From assembly GCA_043825135.1 (NCBI GenBank), contig JBDRSF010000015.1, positions 1,559-65,558 of the forward strand: a stretch of DNA of 64,000 nucleotides. Direction: 5' to 3'. This stretch comes from Candidatus Magasanikiibacteriota bacterium. GTDB taxonomy: Bacteria; Patescibacteriota; Patescibacteriia; Magasanikbacterales; UBA922. The translations under genes were made by a program, and so were the position numbers. The notes below the pieces were generated by a model. The model saw only the letters and a program-made list of their open reading frames with translations, made no database searches and was not told the origin of the DNA. Positions 2,753 through 61,660 of the stretch are shown here, one piece after another; position 1 is the stretch's first letter, and each line of letters opens with the position of its first letter.

Positions 2753-3049
2753 GGGTGGGTTCCCGAGCGGTCAAAGGGGACAGACTGTAAGTTAAATTGC
2801 AGCCCTTAGAGGAAACTCTAAGGTGAACTCTCTGGGATAACGGTGAAAGCTAAGTTTGCTAATTAGTAGATATGCTAATACCGTGGGAACCCTGACATAA
2901 GTCGGGGAGCGCCGTAGAGACTAGATACCAGAGTACCTAAATTTATTTTATAAATAAGGTAAAGATATAGTCCACACCAAAAGGAAACTTTTGGGTTAGT
3001 GAAATCTGTTGGCTCCGCCTTCGGAGGTTCGAATCCTCCCCCACCCACA
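2753..3049 (+). tRNA. tRNA-Tyr(GUA) interrupted by a group I intron in the anticodon loop
   Basis: Exon 1 GGGTGGGTTCCCGAGCGGTCAAAGGGGACAGACTGT is near-identical to E. coli tRNA-Tyr. Exon 2 AAATCTGTTGG-CTCCGCCTTCGGAG (long variable arm)-GTTCGAATCCTCC-CCCACCC-A. Spliced loop is CUGUAAA. Acceptor GGGTGGG/CCCACCC. Confidence 0.75.
2789..3001 (+). ncRNA. group I intron (~213 nt) within tRNA-Tyr anticodon loop
   Basis: Contains the canonical group I S element AAGATATAGTCC (2961-2972) and P7-type GTAGAGACTAGA (compare the Azoarcus tRNA-Ile intron). 5' exon ends in U. Intron ends in G (omega-G). P-like AAATTGCAGCCC near the 5' end. No ORF inside. Confidence 0.7.
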
Positions 3050-3106
3050 AAAAAACTAATCAATAAAAATGATTAGTTTTTTGTTTTATTAAAAAATAAG
3101 CATTAG

Positions 3107-3227
3107 ACCAGCGGTCAAAGGGGACAGACTGCCCCGCCTGAAAGGACGGGGTCCCGTCCAGGCAGAGCCTGGCGGGATAAATCTGTTGGCTCCGTCTTCG
3201 GAGGTTCGAATCCTCCCCTGCCCGCCA
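3107..3227 (+). pseudogene. degenerate second tRNA-Tyr-like copy with a 46-nt structured insertion in the anticodon loop and mismatched acceptor strands
   Basis: CCAGCGGTCAAAGGGGACAGACTG, a 46-nt insert of two hairpins (CCCCG..CGGGG; TCCCG-CCAGGC..GCCTGG-CGGGA), then TAAATCTGTTGGCTCCGTCTTCGGAGGTTCGAATCCTCC-CCTGCCCG-CCA. D-arm, anticodon stem, variable arm and T-arm match the upstream tRNA-Tyr. The 5' acceptor strand is not complementary to the 3' end. Confidence 0.4.
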
Positions 3228-3267
3228 ATTTGGTAAATTAGTAATTTTGTTTATTATTTTATTGGTT

Positions 3268-3297: not shown

Positions 3298-3361
3298 TTT
3301 TATTATTTTTATATTATACTAAAATTATCTAATCTTTTAGTAATTCATTATATTAACCCTC

Positions 3362-3412
3362 CGAAAGATCCCTCGTCGCTCTTCGCTACGCTCGGACTCA
3401 CTCGGGATTGCG
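3362..3412. repeat. family C short palindromic element (GAAAGATCCCTCGTCG...CTCGGGATT), copy 1 of 3, immediately upstream of mutM
   Basis: The same ~55-nt element with conserved ends recurs at 45805-45861 (before metK) and 61593-61647 (before dnaK), each ending 10-14 nt before the start codon. Confidence 0.7.
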
Positions 3413-3421
3413 ATTGAAAAT

Positions 3422-4475: not shown

Positions 4476-5030
4476 GTGGTAGAATTATATAACAAATTGT
4501 TTTTATTGTCAATTATAATTATTAACACTTTCTTCTGTATGTTTAAGAAAAAACCAAATTATAAAAAATTAATTATAGCTCTTCTTATTCCGCAATTAGC
4601 TGGATTTTTGGGTTCAATTGCTAATTTTACTTCGCTTGATATTTGGTATGAAGGAATAGTAAAACCAAGCTTTAATCCACCAAATTGGATTTTTGGTCCG
4701 GTTTGGACTACCTTGTTTTTATTAATGGGTATTGCACTATATTTAATATGGCAGAAAAAACCAAGGTGGGGGACGGACAAAAAAGTTAGTTTTGCTCTGC
4801 TTGCCTTTTATACTCAGCTTGGCTTTAATGTTATCTGGTCTTATTTGTTTTTTGGCTTACAAAATCCTTTGTTTGCCTTTGGAGAAATACTAGTATTGTG
4901 GGTTGCCATTGCTTTGAATATCATTCTTTTTTGGCGTCTGGACAAAAGGGCGGGTTTATTGCTTATTCCTTACATTTTGTGGGTAAGTTTTGCAGTTTTG
5001 CTAAATTATGCTATTTTTATGCTCAATTAA
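4476..5030 (+). CDS. tspO: TspO/MBR family tryptophan-rich sensory protein (true start probably an internal Met near 4539)
   Basis: Five TM helices; motifs WYEGIVKPSFNPPNWIFGPVWTTLFLLMGIALYLIW and C-terminal LLIPYILWVSFAVLLNYAI typical of TspO. Confidence 0.8.
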   Translation: MVELYNKLFLLSIIIINTFFCMFKKKPNYKKLIIALLIPQLAGFLGSIANFTSLDIWYEGIVKPSFNPPNWIFGPVWTTLFLLMGIALYLIWQKKPRWGTDKKVSFALLAFYTQLGFNVIWSYLFFGLQNPLFAFGEILVLWVAIALNIILFWRLDKRAGLLLIPYILWVSFAVLLNYAIFMLN

Positions 5031-5040
5031 CACCTTGCTA

Positions 5041-5069
5041 TTGACTTTTTTTAAATAATGCTGTATTCT
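5041..5069 (+). promoter_or_regulatory. sigma70-like promoter for rpmG (TTGACT-17-TATTCT)
   Basis: -35 TTGACT at 5041, 17-nt spacer, -10 TATTCT at 5064. Confidence 0.4.
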
Positions 5070-5107
5070 GTAGGTACTAATAAATTAATAATCTATTAAA
5101 CAATTAT

Positions 5108-5275
5108 ATGGCAAAATCAAGAGAAAGAGAGAATATGATTAAGTTGCAGTGCACAGAGTGTAAGCATACTAATTATTATTCAAGTAAGAATAAAAAGACT
5201 CTGAAAGATAGACTAGAGCTCAAAAAGCACTGTAAATTTTGCAAGGTTCATACTTTGCATAAAGAGACAAAATAG
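5108..5275 (+). CDS. rpmG: 50S ribosomal protein L33
   Basis: 55 aa [55 protein letters not shown]; L33 zinc-ribbon CxxC...CxxC; below the ORF-track size cutoff. Confidence 0.85.
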
Positions 5276-7183: not shown

Positions 7184-8428
7184 ATGATAAATACTTACGA
7201 TCTAATAGTAATTGGCGGTGGCCCAGCTGGAATAATGGCCGCTGGGATAGCAGGCTCAAGAGGTTTGCGAGTTTTATTGTTGGAAAAAAATAAAGATCTT
7301 GGCAAGAAAATTTTGATTACAGGCAAAGGCAGGTGCAATGTCACTCAAGCAGAGTTTAATTTACGTAAATTAGTTGAAACTTATGGTAAAGATGGAAAAT
7401 TTTTGTTTTCCTCTTTTCATCAATTTGGACCACGGGAAATAATGGATTTTTTTGAAAGCCGTGATGTTGAGTTAAAAATTGAGAGAGGTGGACGCGTATT
7501 TCCAGTTAGTGACAATGCTCGTGATGTGGTGAGTGCTTTGAAAAAGTTTTTAAAAGAAAGCAAAGTTGAAATTATGTATAATGCTAGTGTTAAGGGTTTT
7601 GATCATGAGGATGGCGAAATAAAATCAGTAAAACTTGCCGGTAACAAGAAAATAAAAACAAAAAATTTATTAATTGCCACCGGAGGATTATCTTATCCAG
7701 TAACTGGATCAACTGGTGATGGTTTTAAATGGGCCAAAGATTTTGGTCATACTATTGTGGACACAGATCCGGCTTTGGTTCCTTTAAAAATAAAAGAATC
7801 TTGGACAAAGAAATTACAAGGATTAACAATGAAAAATGTAAGTCTAACCGCCTGGCAAGGCAAGAAAAAAATTACTAGCCGACAGGGTGATATGTTGTTT
7901 ACTCATTTTGGTATTAGTGGTCCAATAGTTCTTGATATGAGTAAAGAAATTATTTCAGCAGAGAAAAAAGGGCAGGTTGAATTATCTTTAAATTTAAAAC
8001 CAGCTTTATCGCGCGAGCAGTTGGATGATAGGATCCAAAGAGATTTTAAAAAATATAATAACAAAGTTTTCAAAAATGCTTTATCAGATCTAGTTGCCAA
8101 AAAAATGATTCCAATAATAATTGAGCAGTCAGGAATTGATCCAGAAGAGAAAGTTAATAGTATTACTAAGGCAGAGCGTTTAAAATTTCTTGAGTTATTA
8201 CAGAATGTAAAAATGACAGTGACAGGCAATACCGGATATATTCAAGCCATAGTAACGAGCGGGGGAGTAAGTTTAAAAGAAATTGATCCCAAAACCATGC
8301 GATCTAAAATAATACCAAATTTATATTTCGCTGGTGAAGTACTAGATATTGACGGCCCGACCGGGGGTTATAATTTACAAGTGGCGTGGGGGACAGGATA
8401 CACTGTGGGGGAGTCTGTGGAGTGGTGA
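7184..8428 (+). CDS. HI0933/YhiN(BaiN)-family FAD-dependent flavoprotein
   Basis: YDLIVIGGGPAG dinucleotide-binding motif, TGKGRCNVTQ and GFDHEDGEIKSVKL signatures of the HI0933-like family; start overlaps the end of the previous ORF. Confidence 0.8.
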   Translation: MINTYDLIVIGGGPAGIMAAGIAGSRGLRVLLLEKNKDLGKKILITGKGRCNVTQAEFNLRKLVETYGKDGKFLFSSFHQFGPREIMDFFESRDVELKIERGGRVFPVSDNARDVVSALKKFLKESKVEIMYNASVKGFDHEDGEIKSVKLAGNKKIKTKNLLIATGGLSYPVTGSTGDGFKWAKDFGHTIVDTDPALVPLKIKESWTKKLQGLTMKNVSLTAWQGKKKITSRQGDMLFTHFGISGPIVLDMSKEIISAEKKGQVELSLNLKPALSREQLDDRIQRDFKKYNNKVFKNALSDLVAKKMIPIIIEQSGIDPEEKVNSITKAERLKFLELLQNVKMTVTGNTGYIQAIVTSGGVSLKEIDPKTMRSKIIPNLYFAGEVLDIDGPTGGYNLQVAWGTGYTVGESVEW

Positions 8429-9209: not shown

Positions 9210-9253
9210 TAAAATAAATTACCTACTGAGATATCTCAGTAGGTAATTTATTA
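9210..9253. repeat. ~44-nt perfect palindrome with 20-bp core CTACTGAGATATCTCAGTAG (copy 1 of 3); probable bidirectional terminator/operator
   Basis: AATAAATTACCTACTGAGATATCTCAGTAGGTAATTTATT; core recurs at 18108-18127 and 58298-58317. Confidence 0.7.
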
Positions 9254-9258
9254 TTGAT

Positions 9259-9353
9259 GTGTCATTGCGAGCGTAGCGAAGCAATCCCATGCTTTGACGC
9301 TTTAAAGATTGGGATTGCTTCGCCCCGATGCGAATCGGTGCTCGCAATGACAC
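9259..9353. repeat. family A MITE-like element (compact copy)
   Basis: GTGTCATTGCGAGCGTAGCGAAGCAATCCC...GGGATTGCTTCGCCCCGATGCGAATCGGTGCTCGCAATGACAC. Confidence 0.7.
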
Positions 9354-9355
9354 AG

Positions 9356-11506
9356 TTAATCATACCTAATCACCCCACGTTCATTATTAACCCGATAATG
9401 CGCAATGGCTAGTTTTAATTTATGGTAATCAAATTTACCATTGAATCTGTTGTAAAGGATAGTTAACTTGTTTGGAATTCCGTTTGTTTTTATGTCTTCA
9501 AGAATTTTTTTCAAATCTGGTTTACTGATAAATTTGGCGATATCAATATCATAGCCTTTTTCATAAAGTTCTGCTAGGTGAGAATAAATAGTTTGTTCTT
9601 TTAGGTTTCTCTCTCGAGCAATTTGGGCGACGGGCATGCCTTTTTGATAATAAACATAAGTTAATTCTTGGGTGGTGCCTTGAGTTTTTTGACCCTCTTT
9701 GTCGCGGGCTTGTACAAAGTCAGCAATGGCAGTAATAAACAATTTACCATAAGTTTGAAATTTTTTGTCACCAACACCACTGATTTGTTTCATGGCTTTT
9801 TCAGTCATTGGTTTGTTATCAATCATCTGATTTAGGGTCGCATCATTAAATACTAGATAAGGTGGAATATTTTGTTTTTGTGCTAGACCTCTTCTTAGTT
9901 CACGCAAAATATCAAATAATTCTTCATCAGCAGTTTGGCGAGCTGATTTTGGTCGGGCTTCTTCGGTGCGTTCTTGTGCTCTTTGTTCAATAGATTGAAT
10001 AGTGACAAATTCAATTTTTTTGTTACCTAGCAAAACTTCTTTGCCAAGCGGAGTAATTTTTAAATTATAATTTTGATCATAGGCAATATCAACCAGGCCC
10101 ATGTTGAGCATTTGCAATAAATAATGTTGCCAGTCTGGTGGAGTAATATCTTTTCCAGCTCCGTAGGTTTTTATTTTATTAAAACCGCGTGTTAAAATTT
10201 CCTGCCGGTTTGATCCGCGCAAAATATCAATTAACAAATTAGTACCCACATTTTCATTTACCCGATAAATAGCTGACAAAGCTTTTTGTGCAATCTCTGT
10301 GCCATTCATTATTTCCGGAGGATTTTTGCAAACATCGCAGTTGCCACAATTATCTTCTTTATGTTCGCTAAAATATGATAATAAAATACGACGACGACAA
10401 ATAAGAGCATCGGCATATTGTTGCATGCGTTCTAGTTTAGCTAGTTGTAGAGTCGGCTGACCGCTTTCCATGGCAAATCTGCGTAGTAATATTACATCAG
10501 CCATGGTATAAAAAAGAATTGTTTCGCTTGGTAGACCGTCTCGTCCTGCACGCCCAATTTCTTGATAATAACCTTCTATGTTTTTTGGTAAATTATGATG
10601 AATGACAAAACGCACATTTGATTTATCAATTCCCATACCAAAAGCAATTGTTGCCACAATAATATTGGTTCGGCCGTGAATAAAATTTTCTTGAGTTTTT
10701 GATCTGGTGTGAGAATCAAGCCCAGCGTGATAATGTGAAGCTTTGATATTTTCTCGGTTTAAAGCCGAGGCAACTTTTTCGGTTTGCTTGCGACTAAGAC
10801 AATAAATAATGCCAGATTCATTTTTACGTTTTTTTATAAAATCAATAATAACATCCAAGCGTTTACGAGCCGGTAAAACTGTTAGGGATAAATTTGGTCG
10901 GTCAAATGAAGAGATGAAAATTTTGGGATTTCTTAAATGTAATTGGGTAACAATATCTTTGCGCGTAATTTTGTCAGCTGTGGCTGTGAGGGCGATGATA
11001 GGTGTTTTTGGAAACCTGTCTTTCAATTGTCCGAGCTGGGTATATTCCTGCCGAAAGTCATGACCCCAAGATGAAATACAATGTGCTTCATCAATGGCAA
11101 ATAAAGACACCTCAATTTGATTAAGTAAATTTTGAAAACTAGCCGTAACTAATTTTTCCGGTGATACATAGAGTAATTTTAATTCATTATTTAACAGCGC
11201 CTGTTCCACTTCGCGCGCTTCATCTTGTTCAAGTGAACTATTTAAAAAATTTGCCGCCACGCCATTTTCAATCAAGCCCTCAACCTGATCCTTCATCAAA
11301 GCAATAAGAGGGGATACTACGATTGTCACGCCCGGTAGAAGTGTGGCTGGTAATTGAAAACACAAAGACTTGCCCCCGCCGGTGGGCATCAAAACCAAAC
11401 AATCCTGACCTTCTAACACAGTCTCAACAATTTCTTTTTGATCAGACTGAAACTCATTAAAGCCAAAATTGTGTTTAAGTGATTTGTGGATTAGTTCTGG
11501 GGTCAT
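9356..11506 (-). CDS. recQ: ATP-dependent DNA helicase RecQ
   Basis: 716 aa; helicase motif I PTGGGKSLCFQLPA, motif II DEAHCISSWGHDFR, RQC zinc-binding Cys cluster, HRDC-like C-terminus. Confidence 0.9.
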   Translation of the reverse strand: MTPELIHKSLKHNFGFNEFQSDQKEIVETVLEGQDCLVLMPTGGGKSLCFQLPATLLPGVTIVVSPLIALMKDQVEGLIENGVAANFLNSSLEQDEAREVEQALLNNELKLLYVSPEKLVTASFQNLLNQIEVSLFAIDEAHCISSWGHDFRQEYTQLGQLKDRFPKTPIIALTATADKITRKDIVTQLHLRNPKIFISSFDRPNLSLTVLPARKRLDVIIDFIKKRKNESGIIYCLSRKQTEKVASALNRENIKASHYHAGLDSHTRSKTQENFIHGRTNIIVATIAFGMGIDKSNVRFVIHHNLPKNIEGYYQEIGRAGRDGLPSETILFYTMADVILLRRFAMESGQPTLQLAKLERMQQYADALICRRRILLSYFSEHKEDNCGNCDVCKNPPEIMNGTEIAQKALSAIYRVNENVGTNLLIDILRGSNRQEILTRGFNKIKTYGAGKDITPPDWQHYLLQMLNMGLVDIAYDQNYNLKITPLGKEVLLGNKKIEFVTIQSIEQRAQERTEEARPKSARQTADEELFDILRELRRGLAQKQNIPPYLVFNDATLNQMIDNKPMTEKAMKQISGVGDKKFQTYGKLFITAIADFVQARDKEGQKTQGTTQELTYVYYQKGMPVAQIARERNLKEQTIYSHLAELYEKGYDIDIAKFISKPDLKKILEDIKTNGIPNKLTILYNRFNGKFDYHKLKLAIAHYRVNNERGVIRYD

Positions 11507-11519
11507 AAATTAGGTGAAG

Positions 11520-11630
11520 CAGAATAAATTTCCAAATAACAATTTCCAAATAGCTTGATAAGAATGCAATATTTGATATTTGAAAATTGATATTTATTTG
11601 GAAATTGTATTTTGGAACTTGTCAGAATAA
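11520..11630. promoter_or_regulatory. intergenic region with four copies of a TTTCCAAAT motif (two direct, two inverted) upstream of recQ
   Basis: AAATTTCCAAATAACAATTTCCAAATAG ... ATATTTATTTGGAAATTGTATTTTGGAAC. Confidence 0.35.
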
Positions 11631-11633
11631 TTT

Positions 11634-12017
11634 TTAAAATAGTTTTAATTTCTGTGATCTCGTCATCTTCTTTATTTCCATCTCTCGCTTAGTCGCTAGG
11701 CTTCGGTTCTTATGTTTTTCAGTATAGACTAATTTAAATGGAAGTCGAGTGCGAACATACTTGGATCCAGTTCCTTGGCGATGACTTTCCAGCCTTCGCT
11801 CCAAATTAGTAGCAATGCCAGCATAAAGCGATCCATCAGCGCATTGTATTATATAAAGGGTGTACATACGAGCAGTATTATAGCACCTATTGACAAAATC
11901 CTCAAAATATGTTATACTATTGTCATCAAATTCAGTATTGTTAAACAAACATAGTCGAGTTTGCCTTTGTCCATTCTGGATAAAAGCACTATGCTGAGAT
12001 TGATTATTCCGCTTCAT
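11634..12017 (-). CDS. GIY-YIG nuclease family protein (UPF0213/YhbQ-like); true start probably internal (MYTLYII...)
   Basis: YTLYIIQCADGSLYAGIATNLERRLESHRQG...KYVRTRLPFKLVY matches the GIY-YIG motif. Confidence 0.7.
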   Translation of the reverse strand: MKRNNQSQHSAFIQNGQRQTRLCLFNNTEFDDNSITYFEDFVNRCYNTARMYTLYIIQCADGSLYAGIATNLERRLESHRQGTGSKYVRTRLPFKLVYTEKHKNRSLATKREMEIKKMTRSQKLKLF

Positions 12018-12369: not shown

Positions 12370-13206
12370 ATGGAGGAATCAAAAAATAAACTCGTTATTT
12401 TTCAAGATAAACAAATTCGTCGTATTTGGTATAACGATGAATGGTTTTTTTCAGTCGTGGATATTGTAGAAGTGTTGACGGAAAGTCCTTATCCAAGGCA
12501 ATATTGGGAAAAAGTAAAGCAAAGGGAATTTATAGAACTTCAGTTGTCCCCAATTTGGTTACAACTGAAATTACCGAGTGCTGATGGCAAAAAATACGCT
12601 ACAGATTGTGTTAATACAGAAAATGCTTTTCGTATAATTCAATCTATTCCATCACCAAAAGCCGAACCTTTTAAGAGATGGTTGGCAATGGTAGGTAAGG
12701 AAAGACTTGATGAAATCGAAGATCCTGAATTAGCACAAGAACGAATGAAAAAATTGTATGAGCAAAAAGGGTATCCAAAAGATTGGGTTGATAAGCGATT
12801 GCGGGGAATAGCTATTCGTCAGAATTTGACTGACGAGTGGCAAGATCGAGGCATTACCAATCAAAAAGATTATGCAATTTTGACGGCAGAAATATCAAAA
12901 GCGACTTTTGGAATGACTCCCAGTGAGTATAAAAATTTTAAAAATATTTCTGACAAGTCAAAAGCAAATTTAAGAGATAATATGACAGATCTAGAGTTAA
13001 TTTTTACCATGTTAGGTGAAAAGGTTACGACAGAAATTTCTAAAAAAGAAAAACCAAAAACTATGCCGGCAAATAAAAAAGTGGCCAAACGAGGTGGTGG
13101 AGTGGCCGGCAAGGCGAGAAAAGATACAGAGGGGGAATTAGGCAGGAGTGTCATGAGTAAAAAGAATTATTTAAAAAGCAGAGTGAAAAACAAAAAATTG
13201 AAATAA
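12370..13206 (+). CDS. Bro-N domain protein, DinD-like (DNA-damage-inducible protein D family)
   Basis: N-terminal Bro-N-like IRRIWYNDEWFFSVVDIVEVL; C-terminal ELIFTMLGEKVTTEI...KKVAKRGGGVAGKARKD resembles E. coli DinD; paralog at 43212-44075; ORF-track start 12346 is GTG, ATG at 12370 preferred. Confidence 0.55.
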   Translation: MEESKNKLVIFQDKQIRRIWYNDEWFFSVVDIVEVLTESPYPRQYWEKVKQREFIELQLSPIWLQLKLPSADGKKYATDCVNTENAFRIIQSIPSPKAEPFKRWLAMVGKERLDEIEDPELAQERMKKLYEQKGYPKDWVDKRLRGIAIRQNLTDEWQDRGITNQKDYAILTAEISKATFGMTPSEYKNFKNISDKSKANLRDNMTDLELIFTMLGEKVTTEISKKEKPKTMPANKKVAKRGGGVAGKARKDTEGELGRSVMSKKNYLKSRVKNKKLK

Positions 13207-13218
13207 ATTTAAAGTTTT

Positions 13219-13830
13219 ATGAACATAATTTTCCGAAAACTATTTAAAAGTATCCCGCCTGAAAAAGAGGGTAAAGAGCTTTTACTACGAGCCAATGCGT
13301 CGGCTTTTCGGGTATTTCAAGACGAAGGTTTTCGCAAGCTGATGGGTTTTGACAAGCAATCACAAGTTGAGCAAGATCGGATTTTTAATGAGTTGTGTGT
13401 GACGGCAATTGTTTATCTGATGTTTATGATAGAAGGTAAGCTATATTTTGAAAAAGTTGTGCCAGAGAGAATCAGGTTTTGGAATAGCTTGCATGATATG
13501 GTTCCTGATCTACATGTCAATTATCTAAAATCGCTCGGCATTGATGAACAAAACGCCAGCATCTGGAAAAAGCTAATTCAAATGCGCCGTCGTGAATACA
13601 AAGACAACCGCCGACTAACCCGAAGTGCTTGGGCCAAAGAACTGGCCACGAGTAAAGCTAGCCCTGAATTTGACGAGTTGGCAGTCCGGCTTGAAACACT
13701 TACCATTGGCGCACTTGATCACATCACCCGCGGACAAGCCAGTCCTGATTTCCAAGACCCTCTACGCCGTCACCTCCGCACCTGGCTCAGCACCCTAGAG
13801 GCGAGGCTGTATAAGAGGGTGGGGTGGTGA
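13219..13830 (+). CDS. hypothetical protein
   Basis: 203-aa ORF, no recognisable motif; 3' third noticeably GC-richer than surroundings. Confidence 0.4.
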   Translation: MNIIFRKLFKSIPPEKEGKELLLRANASAFRVFQDEGFRKLMGFDKQSQVEQDRIFNELCVTAIVYLMFMIEGKLYFEKVVPERIRFWNSLHDMVPDLHVNYLKSLGIDEQNASIWKKLIQMRRREYKDNRRLTRSAWAKELATSKASPEFDELAVRLETLTIGALDHITRGQASPDFQDPLRRHLRTWLSTLEARLYKRVGW

Positions 13831-18093: not shown

Positions 18094-18129
18094 TGTTATA
18101 ATATGATCTACTGAGATATCTCAGTAGAT
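18094..18129 (+). promoter_or_regulatory. extended -10 (TGTTATAAT) followed 4 nt later by the 24-nt palindrome ATCTACTGAGATATCTCAGTAGAT
   Basis: Second copy of the CTACTGAGATATCTCAGTAG palindrome, here overlapping the predicted transcription start of the exonuclease gene. Confidence 0.5.
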
Positions 18130-18147
18130 AATTATTAATAAAATTTT

Positions 18148-18855
18148 ATGCCAATAATCATACTAGACACCGAAACAACTGATCGCGAAGAGAGTAAGCG
18201 TTTAATTCAGCTGGCTTACAAAAATTTGGAAACTGGGGAAGTGGTGAATGAGTATTTTAAACCGCCTGTGCCGATTACCTTTGGTGCTATGGCCGTGCAC
18301 CATGTGACAAATCAGATGGTGGCGGATAAAAAATCATTTGCTGATAGTGAACGTCGGGCAATTTTGACTGAGTTGTTGCCACAGAGTATTTTAGTGGCCC
18401 ATAACGCGCCATTTGATATTCAAGTTTTAAAAAATGAAGGTCTTGAAATTGGGCAAAGTTTAGATACTTTACGATTAGCTAGACACTTGTTTGAAAGTGA
18501 ACAATACAGCTTGCAGTTTTTGCGCTATTCTTTGGGATTAAATATTGATGCTTCGGCTCATGATGCTCTGGGAGATGTGTTGGTGTTGGAAGCCTTGTTT
18601 CATTATTTGAAAAATCAAGCGCAGGAACAATTTAAATTATCTAGCGAAGAAGAAGTGATTGCAAAATTATTAGAACTAAGTGCCATGCCGGTATTGATGA
18701 ATATTATTAATTTTGGGAAATATAAAGGAAAAACTTTTGAAGATGTTGTGAAGGAAGACAGGTCATATTTACAGTGGCTGTTCGGTAGTGAAACTAGTAA
18801 ACCCGAGACAGAGCAAAATGAGGAGATGGTTTATACTTTGAAGCATTGGCTCTAG
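18148..18855 (+). CDS. DEDDh 3'-5' exonuclease (DnaQ/epsilon-like)
   Basis: Exo I ILDTETTD, Exo II LVAHNAPFDIQVL, Exo III SAHDALGDVLV; extra C-terminal KYKGKTFEDV domain. Confidence 0.75.
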   Translation: MPIIILDTETTDREESKRLIQLAYKNLETGEVVNEYFKPPVPITFGAMAVHHVTNQMVADKKSFADSERRAILTELLPQSILVAHNAPFDIQVLKNEGLEIGQSLDTLRLARHLFESEQYSLQFLRYSLGLNIDASAHDALGDVLVLEALFHYLKNQAQEQFKLSSEEEVIAKLLELSAMPVLMNIINFGKYKGKTFEDVVKEDRSYLQWLFGSETSKPETEQNEEMVYTLKHWL

Positions 18856-18900
18856 CACGATACACGACTCACGACTCACATAACACGACACAATGACAGG
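18856..18900. repeat. short tandem repeats (CACGAC/CACATAA units)
   Basis: CACGATACACGACTCACGACTCACATAACACGACACAATGAC; related 14-mer array at 59289-59362. Confidence 0.5.
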
Positions 18901-18927
18901 CATTCTGAGTGAGGGTGTCTTTTGTTT

Positions 18928-19096
18928 GACCTCCCCTTGCTAAGGGGAGGAACACACGAGTTCGCCGTAGCTTTAGCGAAGGTGGACGAAGTGGGGTGGG
19001 GTCGGTTCGCGTAAATGCGATATTAAATATCCACAGACGAGACCCCCTAGCCCCTGATGCGAATCGGGGTGCATTCCCCCTTGGTAAGGGGGAACT
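18928..19096. repeat. family D MITE-like element, 'empty' copy (GACCTCCCCTTGCTAAGGGGAGGAACAC ... GATGCGAATCGGGGTGCATTCCCCCTTGGTAAGGGGGAAC)
   Basis: Same terminal hairpins flank the DUF559 gene at 33266-33745; internal GCTTTAGCGA and CCCCCTAGCC blocks shared with other families. Confidence 0.65.
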
Positions 19097-19198
19097 AAAC
19101 AACCATCACCACAAAGGAGGAGCTCAAGCAGTAAAATCGCTTTTTCTGGCGATTTTTGGTATACTGAATATAGTCAAATAAGTCTTAGTTATAATAAT

Positions 19199-19504
19199 AT
19201 GTCCAAAAAACCTTGGTTCATTGGTTTGGCACAGGCCTTGGGGGTAGTGATTTATTGTATTTTAGTTAGTGGGGTGTTTCAACTTATGCAAAAAGTAGAT
19301 GCTCAACCACCAGCGTTTTTTGCTGCGGCTTTTATGCTTTTGTTTTTAGTTTTCTCTGTCGCTACGGTTGGTTCTTTGGTATTTGGCTATTTTGCATATT
19401 TACTAGTTAATAAAAAAATTAAACCAGCTGTGCAAGTTTTGCTTTCAACTTTAGGATTTTGTTTGTTGTTTGTAATACTTATTATTAGTGTGTTGATGAT
19501 TTAA
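19199..19504 (+). CDS. small membrane protein (3 TM), hypothetical
   Basis: 101 aa, three hydrophobic helices. Confidence 0.5.
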   Translation: MSKKPWFIGLAQALGVVIYCILVSGVFQLMQKVDAQPPAFFAAAFMLLFLVFSVATVGSLVFGYFAYLLVNKKIKPAVQVLLSTLGFCLLFVILIISVLMI

Positions 19505-22286: not shown

Positions 22287-22613
22287 ATGAATGATCTTAT
22301 AAATATAAAAGTAATTCAAAAAGATTTTAATGGTGAGAAGAAGAGGTTTGTTAATGCTAGGGAATTGCATCAGTGGTTGGGTGTGGGCAGAGACTTTTCA
22401 AACTGGATAAAAGACCGCATTGAAAAGTATGATTTTGTTGAAGATTTAGACTATTTTATAGCCTTCGCCAAATTTGGCGATGGACAAAAAGCCCATAACT
22501 CAGGCAAAATTATTGATGCCAAAACTGGTAAAATTTTACCAAAGGAGTATGTCCTTTCTGTGGATATGGCAAAAGAATTTAGCCAAGAAGATATTCAAAA
22601 ACTTATTGGATGA
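22287..22613 (+). CDS. phage antirepressor-like protein (AntA/KilAC-type)
   Basis: DFNGEKKRFVNARELHQWLGVGRDFSNWIKDRIEKYDFVEDLDYF resembles AntA/AntB N-terminal domain. Confidence 0.5.
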   Translation: MNDLINIKVIQKDFNGEKKRFVNARELHQWLGVGRDFSNWIKDRIEKYDFVEDLDYFIAFAKFGDGQKAHNSGKIIDAKTGKILPKEYVLSVDMAKEFSQEDIQKLIG

Positions 22614-33262: not shown

Positions 33263-33265
33263 TTT

Positions 33266-33745
33266 GACCTCCCCTTACGAAGGGGAGGAACACCTGATTC
33301 GCATCAGGGGGAGGGGTTTTTCTATGGAAAAAATATTTAATCAGTCTAAGCACAAAGATCTAAGAAAGATATTGAGAGAAGATTGTACTAAAAGTGAAGC
33401 GGTGTTGTGGAAATATTTAAAAGGAAAACAAATGGGATATAGATTCCGTCGTCAACACGGTATAGGTAGATATATAGTAGATTTTTATTGTCCGAAATTA
33501 AAGCTGATTATAGAAGTGGATGGTTATACGCATATAGATCATGATCAATATATATACGATATGGAGAGAGAAAATTATTTGCGTAGTTTAGGTCTGGTGG
33601 TTAAGAGATATACAGGTGAACAGATTTTTAAACATATTAGGGAAGTCTATCTTGATTTGCAGAATATTTGTGAAGAGTTGAGTAAGGGTTAATGCAAAAA
33701 CCCCCTAGCCACTTCGTGTGCATTCCCCCTTGAAAAGGGGGAACC
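33266..33745. mobile_element. family D MITE-like element carrying a DUF559 endonuclease gene
   Basis: Left end GACCTCCCCTTACGAAGGGGAGGAACAC-CTGATTCGCATCAGGGGG; right end CCCCCTAGCC...GCATTCCCCCTTGAAAAGGGGGAACC; same ends as the cargo-less element at 18928-19096. Confidence 0.55.
33324..33692 (+). CDS. DUF559 (Vsr/MutH-like) endonuclease-domain protein
   Basis: RFRRQHGIGRYIVDFYCPKLKLIIEVDGYTH...RENYLRSLGLVVKRY matches the DUF559 signature; start at ATG after the terminal repeat. Confidence 0.7.
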   Translation: MEKIFNQSKHKDLRKILREDCTKSEAVLWKYLKGKQMGYRFRRQHGIGRYIVDFYCPKLKLIIEVDGYTHIDHDQYIYDMERENYLRSLGLVVKRYTGEQIFKHIREVYLDLQNICEELSKG

Positions 33746-33772
33746 AAACAAAGTTTTTTTTAAAAAAATTCT

Positions 33773-47270: not shown

Positions 47271-47540
47271 CTAGGGGATATGGACTCCCATCCATCCCTG
47301 GGTTTTTGGATCCCAGGTGTAGGCATCCACCTCCTTGTGGAGGTTACGCTTTTGACGGCTTGACCACCAGGAGATGATGCTTACGGTGGTGAAGAGACCA
47401 CCGAGAGCTATTGAAACGAACCCTAGCGTTCTAGGAATCGCATTCTCACCCTCTGTCATCTCTGGATAGAGGATCCAGAGCGTCGCGCCTGCAACCACCA
47501 ACAGGGTGACCACGATGATGGTCAGAAAAAACTTCTTCAT
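47271..47540 (-). CDS. small 2-TM membrane protein encoded in a GC-rich islet (possible horizontal acquisition)
   Basis: 89 aa; strong SD GAAGGAGAGGGACAG-ATG; region ~47140-47560 is much GC-richer than surroundings. Confidence 0.4.
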   Translation of the reverse strand: MKKFFLTIIVVTLLVVAGATLWILYPEMTEGENAIPRTLGFVSIALGGLFTTVSIISWWSSRQKRNLHKEVDAYTWDPKTQGWMGVHIP

Positions 47541-51012: not shown

Positions 51013-52545
51013 ATGATTATAATTATGAATGTAAACAAAATTTTAAAAACAATTTGCAAATTATCCAAAAAAGAAAAGGTAGAAGTGTATGTTGTTGGGG
51101 GTTATGTTCGTGACCAACTGCTTGAATCGAAAGCCGAAAGCCGTACCCACAGGGCATCAGTATCCTCTGAAAAGCCGAAGGCTAATACTGATATTGATTT
51201 TGTGGTTATTGGCAGTGGTTTGGAATTTGCTCAGAAATTGGATAATGAATTAAAGCAAGAAGGATCTTTGGTAGAGTTTCCTGATTTTGATACAGCGAGA
51301 TATATTATAAAAGGAATAAGGAATAAGGGAAAAGCCATGCCTGCCGGCAGGCAGGGAGTAAGCGATTTGGTGATTGAATTGGAATTTGCTGGGGCAAGGA
51401 CTGAGAGTTATGATAAAAAATCAAGAAAGCCAAAGGTTGTGGTTACTAGTTTGGAAGAAGATTTAAAACGTCGCGATTTTACGGTCAATGCTATGGCCCA
51501 ACAGGTGATTGCTACTGGTATTAGCAAAAAAATAATTGATTTGTTTGGTGGACAGGCAGATTTGAAAAATAAGATTTTGAGAACCCCACTTGATCCAGAT
51601 GAAACTTTTTCAGAAGATCCTTTGCGAATGCTTCGGGCTGCAAGATTTGCGTCTCAGCTCGGGTTTTCTATTGAAAAAAGTGCATTGGAAGCTATGGAAC
51701 GCAATCACAAACGTTTAAAAATTATTTCCGCTGAGCGAATTCAAGAAGAATTATTTAAATTATTAAAAACAGATAGGCCGTCAGTTGGTTTTCAGATTTT
51801 GTATGCGACAAAATTATTAGACGAATTTTTGCCAGAAGTAGCAAATTTACAAGGTGTGGAAGAAGTATATGGCCATGGTCACAAAAATAATTTTGAACAT
51901 ACTTTGAAAGTGGTAGATAATATTGCTTTACGATCAGATAAAGTTGTTTTACGTTTAGCTGGGCTTTTACACGATATTGGCAAACCCGGAACCAAGAAAT
52001 TTGTTAAAGGTCGGGGTTGGGCTTTTGATATGCACGAACATTTAGGATTAAAATTAGTGCGTCAAATTGGTAAGCGTTTGCGTTTGTCAAAAGACGATAC
52101 TGAATATATTGGTAAATTAGTCCGTTGGCATCAACAACCAATTCAACTGATGGATGAGAAAATTACTGACAGCGCAATTCGTCGCTTGTTTGTGACTATG
52201 GGCGAAGAGTTTGAAGATCTGTTGATTTTATGCAAAAGCGATATTACCACTGGTAATCCGACTAAAAAAGTTAGACGTCTAAAAAATTATGACTATTTGG
52301 AAGAGAGGGTGGAAGAAATTATTGAAAAAGATAAAATGCGCGCCTTCCAGTCGCCAGTTCGTGGTGAAGAGATTATGAAAGAGTGTGGTCTCAAGCCTGG
52401 TCCAACTGTGGGTAAAATAAAAACCGCTATTGAAGATGCGATTTTGGATGGGAAGATTGAAAATGAGTATGAGGCATCATTTACGTACTTCGAAAAAATA
52501 AAGGCTGAATATTTGAGTATGGCGGAGGAGTGGGAGAGGGTTTAA
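51013..52545 (+). CDS. cca: CCA-adding tRNA nucleotidyltransferase with HD domain
   Basis: N-terminal nucleotidyltransferase GGYVRDQLL...DIDF, RRDFTVNAMA, C-terminal HD region (HxxxH...DIGK); large insertion after the head motif. Confidence 0.8.
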   Translation: MIIIMNVNKILKTICKLSKKEKVEVYVVGGYVRDQLLESKAESRTHRASVSSEKPKANTDIDFVVIGSGLEFAQKLDNELKQEGSLVEFPDFDTARYIIKGIRNKGKAMPAGRQGVSDLVIELEFAGARTESYDKKSRKPKVVVTSLEEDLKRRDFTVNAMAQQVIATGISKKIIDLFGGQADLKNKILRTPLDPDETFSEDPLRMLRAARFASQLGFSIEKSALEAMERNHKRLKIISAERIQEELFKLLKTDRPSVGFQILYATKLLDEFLPEVANLQGVEEVYGHGHKNNFEHTLKVVDNIALRSDKVVLRLAGLLHDIGKPGTKKFVKGRGWAFDMHEHLGLKLVRQIGKRLRLSKDDTEYIGKLVRWHQQPIQLMDEKITDSAIRRLFVTMGEEFEDLLILCKSDITTGNPTKKVRRLKNYDYLEERVEEIIEKDKMRAFQSPVRGEEIMKECGLKPGPTVGKIKTAIEDAILDGKIENEYEASFTYFEKIKAEYLSMAEEWERV

Positions 52546-52549
52546 CCCC

Positions 52550-52730
52550 CTGTCATTCCGACCGAAACCCCGATGAAATACGGGGTGGAGTGGAGGAATC
52601 CCTTTTCTTTACACTATATTTAGTATTAAATAAAATTTTCCTTGATGCATTTGTTGGTGCATTAAAAAGGGATCCCTGCGCCACCGCTAAAGCTTTAGCG
52701 ACACGCGGTCGACTACGCTCGGGATGACAA
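52550..52730. repeat. family B MITE-like element (second full copy)
   Basis: CCTGTCATTCCGACCGAAACCCCGATGAAATACGGGGTGGAGTGGAGGAATCCCTTTTC...GGGATCCCTGCGCCACCGCTAAAGCTTTAGCGACACGCGGTCGACTACGCTCGGGATGACAAC. Confidence 0.75.
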
Positions 52731-52775
52731 CGGAAACATATATCCACAGCGTAAAATGACCTGTAAAGGTCATCG

Positions 52776-54934: not shown

Positions 54935-54943
54935 TTGTCGCAA

Positions 54944-55088
54944 TGTCATCCCGACCGAAACGAGTGAGCCCTCGCGGGCGAGTGAGTGTAGTGGAGGGAT
55001 CCCTTTCTTAAAATAAATAATTTCTAAGAAAGGGATTCCTCCGCTTTGTTCATCCTTCGCGAGAAGGATTCACGTCGGTCGGAATGAC
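54944..55088. repeat. family B-variant MITE-like element with TIRs TGTCATCCCGACCG / CGGTCGGAATGACA
   Basis: Inverted terminal repeats seen directly; internal GAGGGATCCCTTT / AAAGGGATTCCTCC. Confidence 0.65.
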
Positions 55089-58164: not shown

Positions 58165-58295
58165 CTTTTGATTATCCCCTTGTTTATGTTTAAGTATTTA
58201 CTGACTATGTGGAGGATAACATAAAAAAAATTAAAAATCAAATTTTAGTCGTCCATATTCCCCCAGAGGTGGGCAGACATGGTATGGTCTAAGTT

Positions 58296-58317
58296 ATCTA
58301 CTGAAATATCTCAGTAG
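58296..58317. repeat. third copy of the CTACTGAGATATCTCAGTAG palindrome (one mismatch)
   Basis: ATCTACTGAAATATCTCAGTAGGT, preceded by a -10-like TGGTATGGT. Confidence 0.6.
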
Positions 58318-58345
58318 GTAAAGTGGTAGTATTTATCCACAGTTT

Positions 58346-58607: not shown

Positions 58608-59285
58608 ATGAATAGTCGTCAAGAGCAACTCCTAAAATTAGTCGTAGAGTCATATATAGAGAGGGCTGAACCAGTTGGGTCTAATTTTTTGGTGGAAAAT
58701 ACTGATTTGGGAGTGAGTGGGGCGACTATTAGAAATGAAATGAGAGAGTTGGAAGAACAAGGTTACTTGACTCATCCTCATACTTCTTCTGGGCGTATTC
58801 CGACAGAGCTGGGATATCGTCACTATGTAGAAAATTTGATGAATCCTGTTAATATTAAAGATAGTCATAAAGAAGAAATTCAAATTTGTTTTTCAAGTGC
58901 AGAAGGGAAGCAGGCAGTAAAAAACATTGCCAAATACATTGCTGAAAAAACAAATAATGCAGTAATAGTTGCGTTTGGTACAGATGCTTTGTATTACACT
59001 GGCATGAGCCAACTGTTTACCCAGCCAGAATTTCGCGATTATGCTTTTATGGTTAAAGCTTCTACTATTTTTGATCAATGTGAGGAAAGAATTGAAGAGA
59101 TTATTGATTTGTTTGTTGATAAAGAACCAAAAGTCTTGATAGGGGCTGACAATCCTTTTGGGCAGATGACTAGTATGGTTGGTGTTCGGATTGGGGAAGT
59201 ATTTTTTACTATTTTGGGTCCCATGAGAATGGATTATAGTAAGGCCTATTCTTTTGTGGATTATTTACGGGGCGAGGTTAGATAA
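58608..59285 (+). CDS. hrcA: heat-inducible transcription repressor HrcA (short form)
   Basis: N-terminal winged helix EPVGSNFLVENTDLGVSGATIRNEMRELEEQGYLTHPHTSSGRIPTELGYRHYV; 225 aa, shorter than typical HrcA. Confidence 0.8.
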   Translation: MNSRQEQLLKLVVESYIERAEPVGSNFLVENTDLGVSGATIRNEMRELEEQGYLTHPHTSSGRIPTELGYRHYVENLMNPVNIKDSHKEEIQICFSSAEGKQAVKNIAKYIAEKTNNAVIVAFGTDALYYTGMSQLFTQPEFRDYAFMVKASTIFDQCEERIEEIIDLFVDKEPKVLIGADNPFGQMTSMVGVRIGEVFFTILGPMRMDYSKAYSFVDYLRGEVR

Positions 59286-59288
59286 CAA

Positions 59289-59362
59289 AAATCACGTAAC
59301 ACATAACATTATACACGTAACACATAACACGTAACACATAACACGTAACACGTAACAAATTT
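59289..59362. repeat. tandem array of ~14-nt units (CACGTAACACATAA) x4-5
   Basis: ATCACGTAACACATAACATTATACACGTAACACATAACACGTAACACATAACACGTAACACGTAACAAA directly upstream of the Nudix-grpE ORF. Confidence 0.65.
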
Positions 59363-59363
59363 T

Positions 59364-60254
59364 ATGACAGAAGAAAAAAAATATCCAAGTTTGACTGTTG
59401 GTGTTTATATTTTTAACAAAAAGGGAGAAATGTTTTTGATGAGAGCTCCCCATTGGTCTGATAAGTTAGTTATACCTGGCGGGCATGTTGATTATGGTGA
59501 ATCGGTAAGTAATACGGTAATAAGAGAGACGAAAGAGGAAACTGGTTTAGATGTTGAGAATTTAGATTTTTTAAAAGTAGAGGAAATAAAAGATTCAAAA
59601 GATTATACAAAAAATAAACATATTGTTTCTCTAGCTTACAAAGCAACACTCAAAGATGATAAACAAGAACCAAAATTGGACGGCAGAGAGGCGACAGAGT
59701 TCTTTTGGATTAAGCCTAAAGATATCTTGAAAAGAGATGATATTGAAGAGCATACTTACAATGCTACTGAAGAATTATTTGTAAAGAAAAAGAAAAGAGG
59801 TTTTTTAAAAAAATGTAAAAATTGTGAAAAAACCGATGAATATAAATCAGGTTGGGCACGAGCGCAGGCAGATTATCAGAATTTGGTAAAAGAGACTGAA
59901 AAGAAACGAAGTGAGTGGGCGGAATATTCAGAAAGACAGATTTTGGAAGAGTTTATTCCAGTATATGACAATTTCAAGACAGCTTTCAGTCATCAGACTT
60001 CAGACTCCAGCCCCGAATTGGATAATTGGAAGAAAGGAATTGAATATATTATGAAGCAATTTAATAAAGTTTTAGAAGATCACGGTGTGATAGAAATTAG
60101 AACAGTTGGAGAAATTTTTGATCCTGAGCGTTACGAAGCAGTTAGCGAAGAAGAAAGTGATGAAGAATCCGGTAAGATTATCAGAGAGATGGTGTCTGGA
60201 TATGAGATGAGAGGGAAAGTTATTCGCGTGGCGAAAGTAGTAGTAAGTAAATAA
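59364..60254 (+). CDS. grpE: NUDIX hydrolase - GrpE fusion protein
   Basis: Residues 1-140 carry a Nudix box GGHVDYGESVSNTVIRETKEETGL; residues ~165-296 are GrpE-like (ILEEFIPVYDNF..., GVIEIRTVGEIFDPERYEAV..., KVIRVAKVVV); one continuous ORF. Confidence 0.7.
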   Translation: MTEEKKYPSLTVGVYIFNKKGEMFLMRAPHWSDKLVIPGGHVDYGESVSNTVIRETKEETGLDVENLDFLKVEEIKDSKDYTKNKHIVSLAYKATLKDDKQEPKLDGREATEFFWIKPKDILKRDDIEEHTYNATEELFVKKKKRGFLKKCKNCEKTDEYKSGWARAQADYQNLVKETEKKRSEWAEYSERQILEEFIPVYDNFKTAFSHQTSDSSPELDNWKKGIEYIMKQFNKVLEDHGVIEIRTVGEIFDPERYEAVSEEESDEESGKIIREMVSGYEMRGKVIRVAKVVVSK

Positions 60255-60264
60255 TTTTAAAACC

Positions 60265-60381
60265 AGTCATTGCGAGGAATGCGTAGCAATGACGAAGCAA
60301 TCCCATCCATAAATACCACTGCTAGTGTATTAAAGACTGGGATTGCCACGTCCCGATGCGAATCGGGACTCGCAATGACAC
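60265..60381. repeat. family A MITE-like element (copy 3) upstream of hsp20
   Basis: AGTCATTGCGAGGAATGCGTAGCAATGACGAAGCAATCCC...GGGATTGCCACGTCCCGATGCGAATCGGGACTCGCAATGACAC. Confidence 0.7.
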
Positions 60382-60449
60382 AAAAACAATTTCAAATTGT
60401 AAATTAATACCCACGGGGCATCAGTGTCCCCTGATAATTCAAAAAAAAT

Positions 60450-60890
60450 ATGTTACCAAGAATATATGATCCCTTTGAGGAGATGGAAGAAATGATGAGA
60501 CATCTTCCTTCCGTTCGTAATACCAATGCTATTCAACCAAGGGGTTTTGTGCCAGCTTTAGACGTATACGAGACTAAGACCTCTGTTATGGTAGAAACAC
60601 CTCTGGCTGGAATTAATCCCAAGGATGTTGAGGTCAGTGTTGAAAAAGGAATTCTCACAATCCAAGGTGAAAGTAAAAAAGAACACGAAGTAGAAGAAAA
60701 AAACTATTATCGCAAAGAAGTTCGCTCTGGTTCATTTTATCGTAAAGTTGATTTACCAAAACCTGTAAAAGAAGACGAAGTAACTGCCGAGTTTGAAGAT
60801 GGAATTTTGAAGATTACTTGTCCTAAGGCTGAGCCGAGTGTTAGTAAGAAAGTTGCGGTGAAGGTGGTGAAGAAGGGGAAGCGGGTGTAG
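60450..60890 (+). CDS. Hsp20/alpha-crystallin family small heat-shock protein
   Basis: Alpha-crystallin domain PALDVYETKTSVMVETPLAGINPKDVEVSVEKGILTIQGE...AEFEDGILKI. Confidence 0.88.
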   Translation: MLPRIYDPFEEMEEMMRHLPSVRNTNAIQPRGFVPALDVYETKTSVMVETPLAGINPKDVEVSVEKGILTIQGESKKEHEVEEKNYYRKEVRSGSFYRKVDLPKPVKEDEVTAEFEDGILKITCPKAEPSVSKKVAVKVVKKGKRV

Positions 60891-60896
60891 ACGCGT

Positions 60897-60958
60897 TGTC
60901 ATCCCGAGTGGATTCACCGTATCTTTAGCGGAGGTGAAGAAGTCGAGGGATCCCTTTC
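60897..60958. repeat. family B-related short element (TGTCATCCCGAGTGG...GTCGAGGGATCCCTTTCG)
   Basis: Shares TGTCATCCCGAG and GGGATCCCTTT blocks with family B. Confidence 0.5.
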
Positions 60959-60973
60959 GTAAGTCATATATTT

Positions 60974-61647: not shown

Positions 61648-61660
61648 ACGAAAAAATTCT

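Follow-up and report, generated by a model that had tools for sequence, protein, structure and literature searches.

Family D is a family of short palindromic repeats in the 64,000-nt stretch of DNA analysed here (the window; positions 1,559 to 65,558 of contig JBDRSF010000015.1, from a Candidatus Magasanikiibacteriota bacterium). The window, through which this genome was sampled, is ~35% GC with nearly all genes on the + strand, and carries three family D doublets (e1, e2 and e3; Table 1), one of which, e2, encloses a gene for a 122-aa DUF559 protein. We consider with moderate confidence that family D is a REPIN/BIME-like repeat (REPIN, repetitive extragenic palindromic (REP) doublet forming a hairpin; BIME, bacterial interspersed mosaic element) in which a resident DUF559 nuclease holds the position of the REP-associated tyrosine transposase (RAYT), its product acting in trans. 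The doublet at 18928-19096 is a non-coding, gene-less unit that is copied as such. The novelty lies in a repeat family that has a nuclease gene of its own, for which we document the association and infer the mechanism.

The window was scanned for perfect pyrimidine-first GC-rich hairpins (pyrimidine arm, 3-nt loop, purine arm). Six were found in the 64 kb, forming three pairs, and all six lay in e1-e3. A scan of the 64 kb allowing one mismatch showed no additional family palindrome, and its two extra matches (22462-22483 and 47450-47472) had unrelated stems. The pattern CCCCTTNNNAAGGGG gave four matches against 0.16 expected, a number reached by none of 100 shuffled sequences. From outside to inside, each arm consisted of an outer extension of ~10 nt (TTTG... 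/ ...CAAAC), a 21-bp palindrome built as 9+3+9 with the pyrimidine half first and a 3-nt spacer, up to two small hairpins in some arms and none in others, and a G-box of 10 nt (GGGGNGGGGT). Most arms came in pairs that pointed inward, with the G-box on one and a near-complementary C-box on the other. These boxes, which were missed in the initial annotation, enclosed an AT-rich interior of 39 nt in e1 and the DUF559 open reading frame (ORF) in e2, where the G-box ended 6 nt 5' of the ATG and the C-box began 7 nt 3' of the stop. The e2 G-box probably doubles as a Shine-Dalgarno site. Terminal inverted repeats were present (TTTGACCTCCCCTT... pairs with ...AAGGGGGAACYAAA), and the predicted single-strand fold comprised two terminal hairpins and a central long-range stem (z = -4.9 for e1 and -4.3 for e3).

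The initial annotation had located hairpin-ended elements at 18928-19096, 33266-33745 and 39773-39977 and had regarded the ~170-bp and ~480-bp copies as one element type without and with a DUF559 ORF, the sole cargo of the longer copy. All of this was borne out, and the third element, described as similar, has the same layout in a diverged subfamily. The sequence GATGCGAATC, proposed as a shared core, was instead an optional nested hairpin, for which e1 and e2 differ both in the arm that holds it and in its orientation. It also occurs within an unrelated repeat (D11) at 9302-9354 and 60330-60382. Target-site duplications, suggested as a check, were absent, with no direct repeat beside e1, e2, e3 or seven aligned metagenome copies; the TTTG...CAAA at the element ends belongs to the inverted repeat. 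No element hairpin was called as an intrinsic terminator and T-runs were absent after the hairpins. A separate terminator-like hairpin at 18898-18920 directly preceded e1. Rfam gave no gathering-score match anywhere in the window, and for 18800-19250 the search stayed empty even at E<=1. Heptamer-like repeats in tandem (ACACGAC / TAACACG) were seen directly after gene ends at 18856-18892, immediately upstream of e1, and at 59283-59366.

Close gene-less copies were collected by a metagenome scan with the left palindrome, which returned seven loci (loci are given as L numbers), and these were aligned with e1. Homology ran from TTGACCTCCCC to GGGGGAAYYAA, including the ~40-nt interior, and the flanks were unrelated. 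The element therefore has defined ends, and the conservation of the ~40-nt interior at unrelated sites indicates that gene-less copies multiply as gene-less copies. The e1 interior motif GTTCGC.TAATGCGAT...CACAGA was kept in relatives. Gene-less interiors showed no ORF remnants: similarity to the gene-bearing form ended within ~8 nt of the G-box or C-box, and the ATG present in several interiors was inconsistent across copies. Optional hairpin modules occurred in either arm among the aligned copies, and L086 and L087 had the reverse complement of the e1 left-arm module in their right arms. Many copies abutted the T-tract of a host terminator-like hairpin (e1, L083, L086, L088, three L101 copies and one L100 copy).

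Some arms were solitary and others stood back to back. In L085, the space from the glyA stop to the tsaE start was filled by, in order, a C-box, a small hairpin, an R-palindrome, 13 nt, an L-palindrome, a small hairpin and a G-box. This 13-nt tail-to-tail linker (CAAACACACACTT) recurred as its reverse complement in L100, and the head-to-head linker was the ~40-nt interior. A further nested hairpin, CCTGCCCGCC...GGCAGGCGG, was observed inside the G-box or C-box of L101 copies (4918-5150, 7516-7700, 10768-10941 and 13193-13412) and in L083 and L086, which suggests that the palindromic modules insert into one another.

We compared the DUF559 locus between Magasanikbacteria relatives. The order of a 169-aa gene, the DUF559 gene and an LTD-domain gene was kept in four lineages (window, L090, L100 and L102), and the 169-aa gene and the LTD-domain gene likewise enclosed the closest homologues, P0002 (79% identity) and P0008 (57%), and the FLOH01000887.1 copy. 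Protein identity to the window for L090, L100 and L102 was 79%, 79% and 57% for DUF559, 79%, 78% and 63% for the LTD gene, and 61%, 92% and 61% for the upstream gene. Diverging in step with its neighbours at the same locus, the gene-bearing copy does not behave as an autonomous hopping element; the DUF559 gene is a stable, vertically inherited resident, immobile on the timescale examined. The palindromes at this locus were of the CCTCCCCTT type on the left and the TTCCCCCTT type on the right in the window, of the CCTCCCCTT type on both sides in L090 and L100, the right being a perfect inverted repeat of the left, and of the CCCCTCCT type on both sides in L102. The terminal inverted repeats of L090 were perfect over 27 nt plus 10 nt (GGGGTGGGGT/ACCCCACCCC). 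A 59% homologue, P0006, stood in another context with its own inverted palindromes. A reading of L082 in which gene and arm have opposite orientations was rejected, as tblastx showed an orthologous locus on the other strand. The initial annotation had proposed DUF559 as the mobilising nuclease of a small autonomous element that generates non-autonomous derivatives. The link between DUF559 and the element stood, and was general across phyla (below), but the gene sits at one locus in the four lineages; the derivatives do multiply as gene-less copies, but the gene-bearing copy does not behave as a hopping parent.

Gene-less pairs, by contrast with the gene, were present or absent at orthologous sites in relatives, which answered the suggested comparison of occupied and empty sites. 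L100 and L101 (the latter sampled over 20 kb, with four doublets) were syntenic with the window from RecQ to RF-1. A pair was present between RecQ and GIY-YIG in L101 and absent there from the window and L100, while downstream of RecQ both L100 and L101 had a pair and the window had none. Downstream of ExoX the window carried e1 and L101 a pair, and L100, in which the downstream genes differ, had none immediately after ExoX and a degenerate copy beyond it at ~11465-11640. Between the DUF559 element and the LTD gene, L100 had an extra, empty pair 15 nt from the gene-bearing one, the window had no pair, and the L101 locus was not syntenic.

The L101 element at the ExoX|PIF1 site was co-linear with e1, with a common interior (GTTCGC.T.AATGCGAT...CACAGA) and right flanks alike up to a downstream promoter-like TTTTTGGTATAATG. 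Its palindromes differed from those of e1 at five position pairs, each changed on both sides so that pairing was kept; the stem positions that changed were 3 and 5. Identity of this element was 89-91% to the other three pairs of the 20-kb stretch but 78% to e1. The four L101 copies were 89-95% alike, and all seven palindromes in the 20-kb stretch had one stem type. Since the L101 paralogues are closer to each other than to the orthologous e1, the arms evolve in concert within a genome. The results showed turnover of gene-less doublets from genome to genome, with homogenisation inside any one of them. Small, reduced genomes of the candidate phyla radiation (CPR) thus still carry repeat families that are actively turning over.

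To extend the comparison, one genome per species was scanned, giving 582 protein relatives, of which the best 80 (39-55% identity) were analysed. They came from 80 different genome records in many phyla (Patescibacteria, Nitrospirota, Gammaproteobacteria, Bacteroidota, Planctomycetota, Chloroflexota and others), so the DUF559 copy number looks low. The loci comprised 558 kb, and the zone within 200 nt (<=200 nt) of a DUF559 gene made up 5.7% of it. This zone held 144 of the 211 pyrimidine-first perfect hairpins. Purine-first hairpins numbered four in the same 558 kb, and other GC-rich hairpins were evenly spread. Palindromes stood in the near-gene zone in nearly all loci, for example CCCCTCCTT-NNN-AAGGAGGGG and CCTCCCCTT-NNN-AAGGGGAGG; with ORF limits as inferred, at least one hairpin was present in 65/80 loci and hairpins on both sides in 40/80. 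The loop was 3 nt in 92 of 137 hairpins, and the 63 distinct stems were all self-complementary. The order hairpin, G-box, ATG...stop, C-box, hairpin recurred across phyla, with a G-box between hairpin and start codon in 39/49 loci and a C-box ahead of the downstream hairpin in 40/56. Upstream and downstream flanks matched better within than between loci, both as inverted repeats (p=4e-9) and as direct repeats of whole modules (p=5e-6). In other phyla (L002, L043, L051 and L059), gene-less pairs shared both their ends and their contig with the local gene-bearing copy, and those of e1, L100, L002, L051 and L059 had the same boxes as the gene-bearing form. As judged from these sequences, the association of gene and palindrome extends across phyla. 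Full-text literature searches turned up no publication that connects repeats to DUF559 or YcjD.

As a control, 2.9 million viral contigs were searched and yielded 38 distant DUF559 relatives. Several of the closer relatives had hairpins beside the gene (L112, L113 and L117; 32-39% identity). Of the relatives at <=40% identity, 27/32 had none, which served as a control of specificity. Phage carriage as the main vehicle was rejected, given only 38 distant relatives in this set, most without hairpins. In some loci (L070, L036 and L008) the gene stood between whole modules in direct repeat, which prompted us to consider integron attC cassettes, which were also rejected: there was no GTTRRRY-type core and inverted layouts were at least as common (an integrase was not searched for).

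An arm of hairpin and G-box was also seen beside a DUF559 gene in E. coli, for which the loci covered were L089 (K-12 NC_000913.3, 1351040-1351830) and L099 (uropathogenic E. coli 536). The DUF559 gene ycjD was followed on its 3' side by an imperfect palindrome, a partial duplicate of the ycjD 3' end, and then an arm of hairpin and G-box (CCCCTCT-GGGG-AGAGGG TTAGGGTGAGGGG); the arm 5' of ycjD was degenerate. The 3' arm, which judged by its copy number is probably BoxC, was itself a repeat, with a median of 18 and a maximum of 32 places per genome across 5,426 genomes. This number agrees with the 22-32 copies of ~56 bp given for BoxC in E. coli (PMC2267715). The ycjD gene replaces the eefRABCD operon in phylogroups A, B1, C and two further sequence types (PMC12817139). 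Arm matches occurred at 1-15 places in strains without ycjD versus 15-29 in others, a contrast that is confounded by phylogroup and BLAST threshold and is therefore a lead only.

The 122-aa product matched Pfam DUF559 (PF04480) at E=3e-27 and PDB 3HRL, a Neisseria 'endonuclease-like protein', at E=4e-20. Residues D53, E64, D66 and H70 were invariant across 20 homologues including E. coli YcjD, and the catalytic residues are intact. The score of the Vsr family was not reached (Pfam Vsr, 18.7 bits with a cut-off of 27, E=0.0016; TIGR00632, 17.9 bits with a cut-off of 97.85). In Pfam the protein matched DUF559/Vsr-like families and did not match Y1_Tnp; PADLOC and PHROGs gave weak matches, the NCBIfam YcjD model fell below its cut-off, and none of these gave the protein a functional name. 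No cytosine-5 or Dcm-type methyltransferase was found near the gene among the flanking ORFs scanned, which were SocA/HTH, RF-1, SWIM, hypothetical and LTD. The window DUF559 and ExoX-like proteins were each 100% identical to NCBI proteins from a metagenome-assembled genome of Candidatus Magasanikbacteria (Patescibacteria/CPR). Exact-sequence look-ups with the window DUF559 and its 114-aa neighbour gave no match, and that with ExoX returned an identical Logan contig only. In Caulobacter, VsrA (DUF559) is required for the DNA-damage response when YGCCGGCR motifs are without ScmA methylation, a case in which linkage to a methyltransferase is not obligatory (PMC12907096). VsrA supports the activity of a DUF559 protein in vivo, and the same work also favours a repair nuclease, one of the alternatives weighed below. 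Annotated DUF559 proteins (P0006, P0008, P0010, P0016, P0019 and P0102) often had C-terminal tails, for instance PPLLRKEGTT or TPPCPLLERGGGQ, that are translated C-box and palindrome, so gene callers read through into the repeat.

Palindromic, genome-specific, multiplying doublets together with one resident, vertically inherited gene amount to the REP/REPIN-RAYT arrangement in all but the enzyme. We therefore compared family D with that system (PMC3116915, PMC2817692, PMC3333891). Both have short GC-rich intergenic palindromes, inverted doublets as the replicating unit, repeats specific to the genome, and one low-copy, vertically inherited gene flanked by inverted repeats (the copy number here being that of the loci sampled). 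The differences are that the gene encodes a DUF559 PD-(D/E)XK nuclease, not an HUH/Y1 transposase, and lies inside a doublet, between its arms, and that the palindromes lack a GTAG or CGTC tag, being pyrimidine-first with a 3-nt spacer and an adjoining G-box. Enterobacterial BIMEs are likewise a mosaic of palindromic units in alternating orientation with two kinds of conserved linker, but their unit sequences are different and family D has nested optional hairpin modules. E. coli BoxC/ycjD resembles family D in that a DUF559 gene is followed by a hairpin and G-box arm that is a genomic repeat, and differs in its degenerate upstream arm.

In the mechanism that we propose, the DUF559 product would be the trans-acting enzyme of family D. 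It would recognise the palindromes, whether in duplex form, bound by a symmetric dimer, or extruded into a hairpin, and would introduce a nick or cut at that place. A 9+3+9 symmetry that is perfect, its spacer fixed in length and free in sequence, suits both forms. Recombinational repair of the break from other copies would keep the arms of a genome homogeneous, and now and then would also place a copied gene-less pair at a new site, usually directly behind an intrinsic terminator's T-tract. Several points weigh against this proposal. The suggested link between DUF559 and the palindromes comes from genomic association, and a PD-(D/E)XK nuclease by itself cannot explain insertion at new sites without homology. 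For this organism, sampled over 64 kb, the notions of 'one gene, many arms' and of arms that need the gene are conjectures. L100 has two hairpin classes (CCTCCCCTT and CCCCTCCTT) but one DUF559 gene in 20 kb, and all E. coli genomes keep related repeat copies, even where ycjD is replaced. The arms could also be spread by another enzyme, unseen here.

Three other explanations were weighed against a resident nuclease acting on the arms in trans. In one, the 480-bp copy is a small autonomous transposon with DUF559 as transposase, and the gene-less copies are internal-deletion derivatives, that is, MITEs (miniature inverted-repeat transposable elements), mobilised in trans. Terminal inverted repeats do bracket the gene, perfectly so in L090 (27 nt plus boxes), gene-less copies have the same ends, an L059 copy with just ATGAAATAATAA between its boxes resembles an ORF deletion, and distant homologues occupy other contexts (L093, and hosts across phyla). 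We nevertheless regard a transposon as unlikely, because the gene keeps its locus even where protein identity has fallen to 57%, and diverges with its neighbours, the top 80 genomic matches came from 80 genome records with no sign of multiple copies per genome, no target-site duplication was seen, and arms are also single and back to back. The known chemistry of the fold speaks against it as well. We know of no strand-transfer chemistry for a 122-aa PD-(D/E)XK nuclease and of no case of transposition by a PD-(D/E)XK protein alone; TnsA depends on TnsB. Family D shares with MITEs derived from insertion sequences its small, non-coding copies with terminal inverted repeats in several contexts, their presence/absence polymorphism, and a one-gene, longer relative whose ends are identical in kind. 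It departs from them in the missing target-site duplication, in its single and back-to-back arms, and in a gene that is not a known transposase and is immobile on the timescale examined. The alternative raised with the initial annotation, that the hairpins are REP-like sequences beside many unrelated genes without element boundaries, holds in so far as the arms are REP/BIME-like, but the copies have defined boundaries and a specific gene partner.

It is similarly doubtful that DUF559 is a free-standing homing endonuclease that entered a pre-existing palindromic repeat, cutting the centre of a gene-less pair and being copied in by repair, with the arms spreading otherwise. This would fit the precise replacement of the interior by the ORF between G-box and C-box, the spread of the family across phyla at 40-55% identity, the position of ycjD in place of eefRABCD in several E. 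coli lineages (PMC12817139), and the existence of a Vsr-fold homing endonuclease (I-Bth0305I, PDB 3r3p) that is listed with Vsr and DUF559 (PMC3424549). I-Bth0305I likewise has the Vsr/EDxHD fold and small size, and only some alleles carry its gene, but the DUF559 gene has no intron, its product has no N-terminal DNA-binding extension, and there was no sign of recent invasion of adjacent empty sites. Only one of the three window pairs is occupied, the L100 pair next to the gene-bearing one is still empty, and the long-term synteny of the gene argues against recent spread; homing also leaves the within-genome homogenisation of arms and the constant company of arm and gene unexplained. Lower still we place an explanation without any link to mobility, in which DUF559 works on its own, as a repair nuclease of Vsr type or a restriction-like one, and the palindromes are cis-acting RNA or DNA signals travelling with the gene (insulating hairpins, mRNA stabilisers or Shine-Dalgarno sequestration), hairpins elsewhere being ordinary intergenic structures. 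The methylation-sensitive, SOS-induced nuclease VsrA of Caulobacter (PMC12907096), stems that resemble Shine-Dalgarno and anti-Shine-Dalgarno sequences (AAGGAGG / CCTCCTT), and a G-box at Shine-Dalgarno distance from the ATG all speak for such signals. They do not account for gene-less copies with defined ends, conserved interiors, 89-95% identity at unrelated sites and presence/absence variation, nor for an enrichment specific to the pyrimidine-first class rather than GC-rich hairpins generally. The hairpins lack following T-runs and any Rfam match even at E<=1, and no cytosine methyltransferase lies near the gene. Vsr endonucleases and VsrA, which carries a DUF559 domain, share fold and catalytic residues with the family D protein; its weak Vsr profile match and the missing Dcm-type methyltransferase nearby set it apart from Vsr.

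More tentatively, YcjD-like DUF559 proteins may be the trans-acting enzymes of a second, RAYT-independent class of REP-like palindromic repeats that extends from the CPR to Proteobacteria and probably includes the so far unexplained BoxC repeats of E. coli. A pyrimidine-first palindrome of the 9+3+9 form would be what the nuclease recognises, and the breaks that it makes would lead to copying by recombination and to homogenisation of the repeats throughout the genome. DUF559 (COG2852) is among the most widespread uncharacterised bacterial protein families, and for many short palindromic repeats between genes neither the origin nor a mobilising enzyme is known. The pairing described here suggests a substrate for the nuclease, the flanking palindrome, and an enzyme for repeats that RAYT leaves unexplained. 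It also accounts for a common annotation artefact, since DUF559 tails such as PPLL.KEG are translated repeat, and E. coli ycjD with its neighbouring repeat offers a tractable experimental system.

Table 1. Coordinates of family D elements, their parts and other palindromic repeats in the window
Feature	Position	Strand	Remarks
e1, gene-less two-armed element	18925..19103	none	Ends from seven-copy alignment; arms inward round 39-nt interior
e1 left terminal palindrome, CCTCCCCTT-GCT-AAGGGGAGG	18930..18950		
e1 optional nested hairpin module (GTTCGCCGTAGCTTTAGCGAAGGTGGAC)	18956..18992		Left arm; not in other copies
e1 G-box, GGGGTGGGGT	18993..19002		Pairs with C-box in predicted fold
e1 interior	19003..19041		Occupies the place of the e2 DUF559 ORF
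e1 C-box, ACCCCCTAG	19042..19050		
e1 optional small hairpin, CCCCTGAT-GCGA-ATCGGGG	19051..19069		Right arm; 'GATGCGAATC core' of the initial annotation
e1 right terminal palindrome, TTCCCCCTT-GGT-AAGGGGGAA	19074..19094		
e2, same element type with DUF559 gene between G-box and C-box	33265..33752	+	Orthologous loci L090, L100, L102
e2 left terminal palindrome, CCTCCCCTT-ACG-AAGGGGAGG	33268..33288		
e2 small hairpin, CCTGAT-TCGC-ATCAGG	33293..33308		Left arm; reverse complement of e1 module at 19051-19069
e2 G-box, GGGGAGGGGT	33308..33317		
DUF559 gene, 122 aa	33324..33692	+	Pfam match
e2 C-box, ACCCCCTAG	33700..33708		
e2 small hairpin, CAC-TTCG-GTG	33710..33718		Kept in ortholog L102
e2 right terminal palindrome, TTCCCCCTT-GAA-AAGGGGGAA	33723..33743		
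e3, gene-less element	39773..39977		Diverged subfamily; same order of parts, other sequences
e3 left hairpin	39776..39794		
e3 small hairpin	39799..39810		
e3 G-box	39810..39821		
e3 C-box	39923..39931		
e3 small hairpin	39940..39950		
e3 right hairpin	39955..39973		
Other palindromic repeat families	9262-9354, 60330-60382, 40900-41097, 42085-42223, 52542-52743, 54935-55083, 60880-60973, 61595-61650, 3356-3414		

The window also contained other GC-rich palindromic intergenic repeats, of the types GTCATTGCGAG...CTCGCAATGAC and GTCATCCCGA.../GGGATCCC, and small hairpin modules such as CCCGATGCGAATCGGG were common to those other repeat families and family D. A 28-nt perfect palindrome, TTACCTACTGAGATATCTCAGTAGGTAA, occurred three times (9215-9246, 18100-18131 and 58290-58321) and was also found 3' of RecQ in L100. 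Sequences resembling tRNA halves were observed at 2749-2791, 3002-3051 and 3120-3228, with an acceptor and D-arm (GGGTGGGTTCCCGAGCGGTCAAAGGGG...ACTGTAA) and ...AAATCTGTTGGCTCCGCCTTCGGAGGTTCGAATCCTCCCCCACCCA lying ~210 nt apart, followed by a second interrupted copy. Neither ARAGORN nor Rfam called these sequences, which may be intron-containing tRNA genes.

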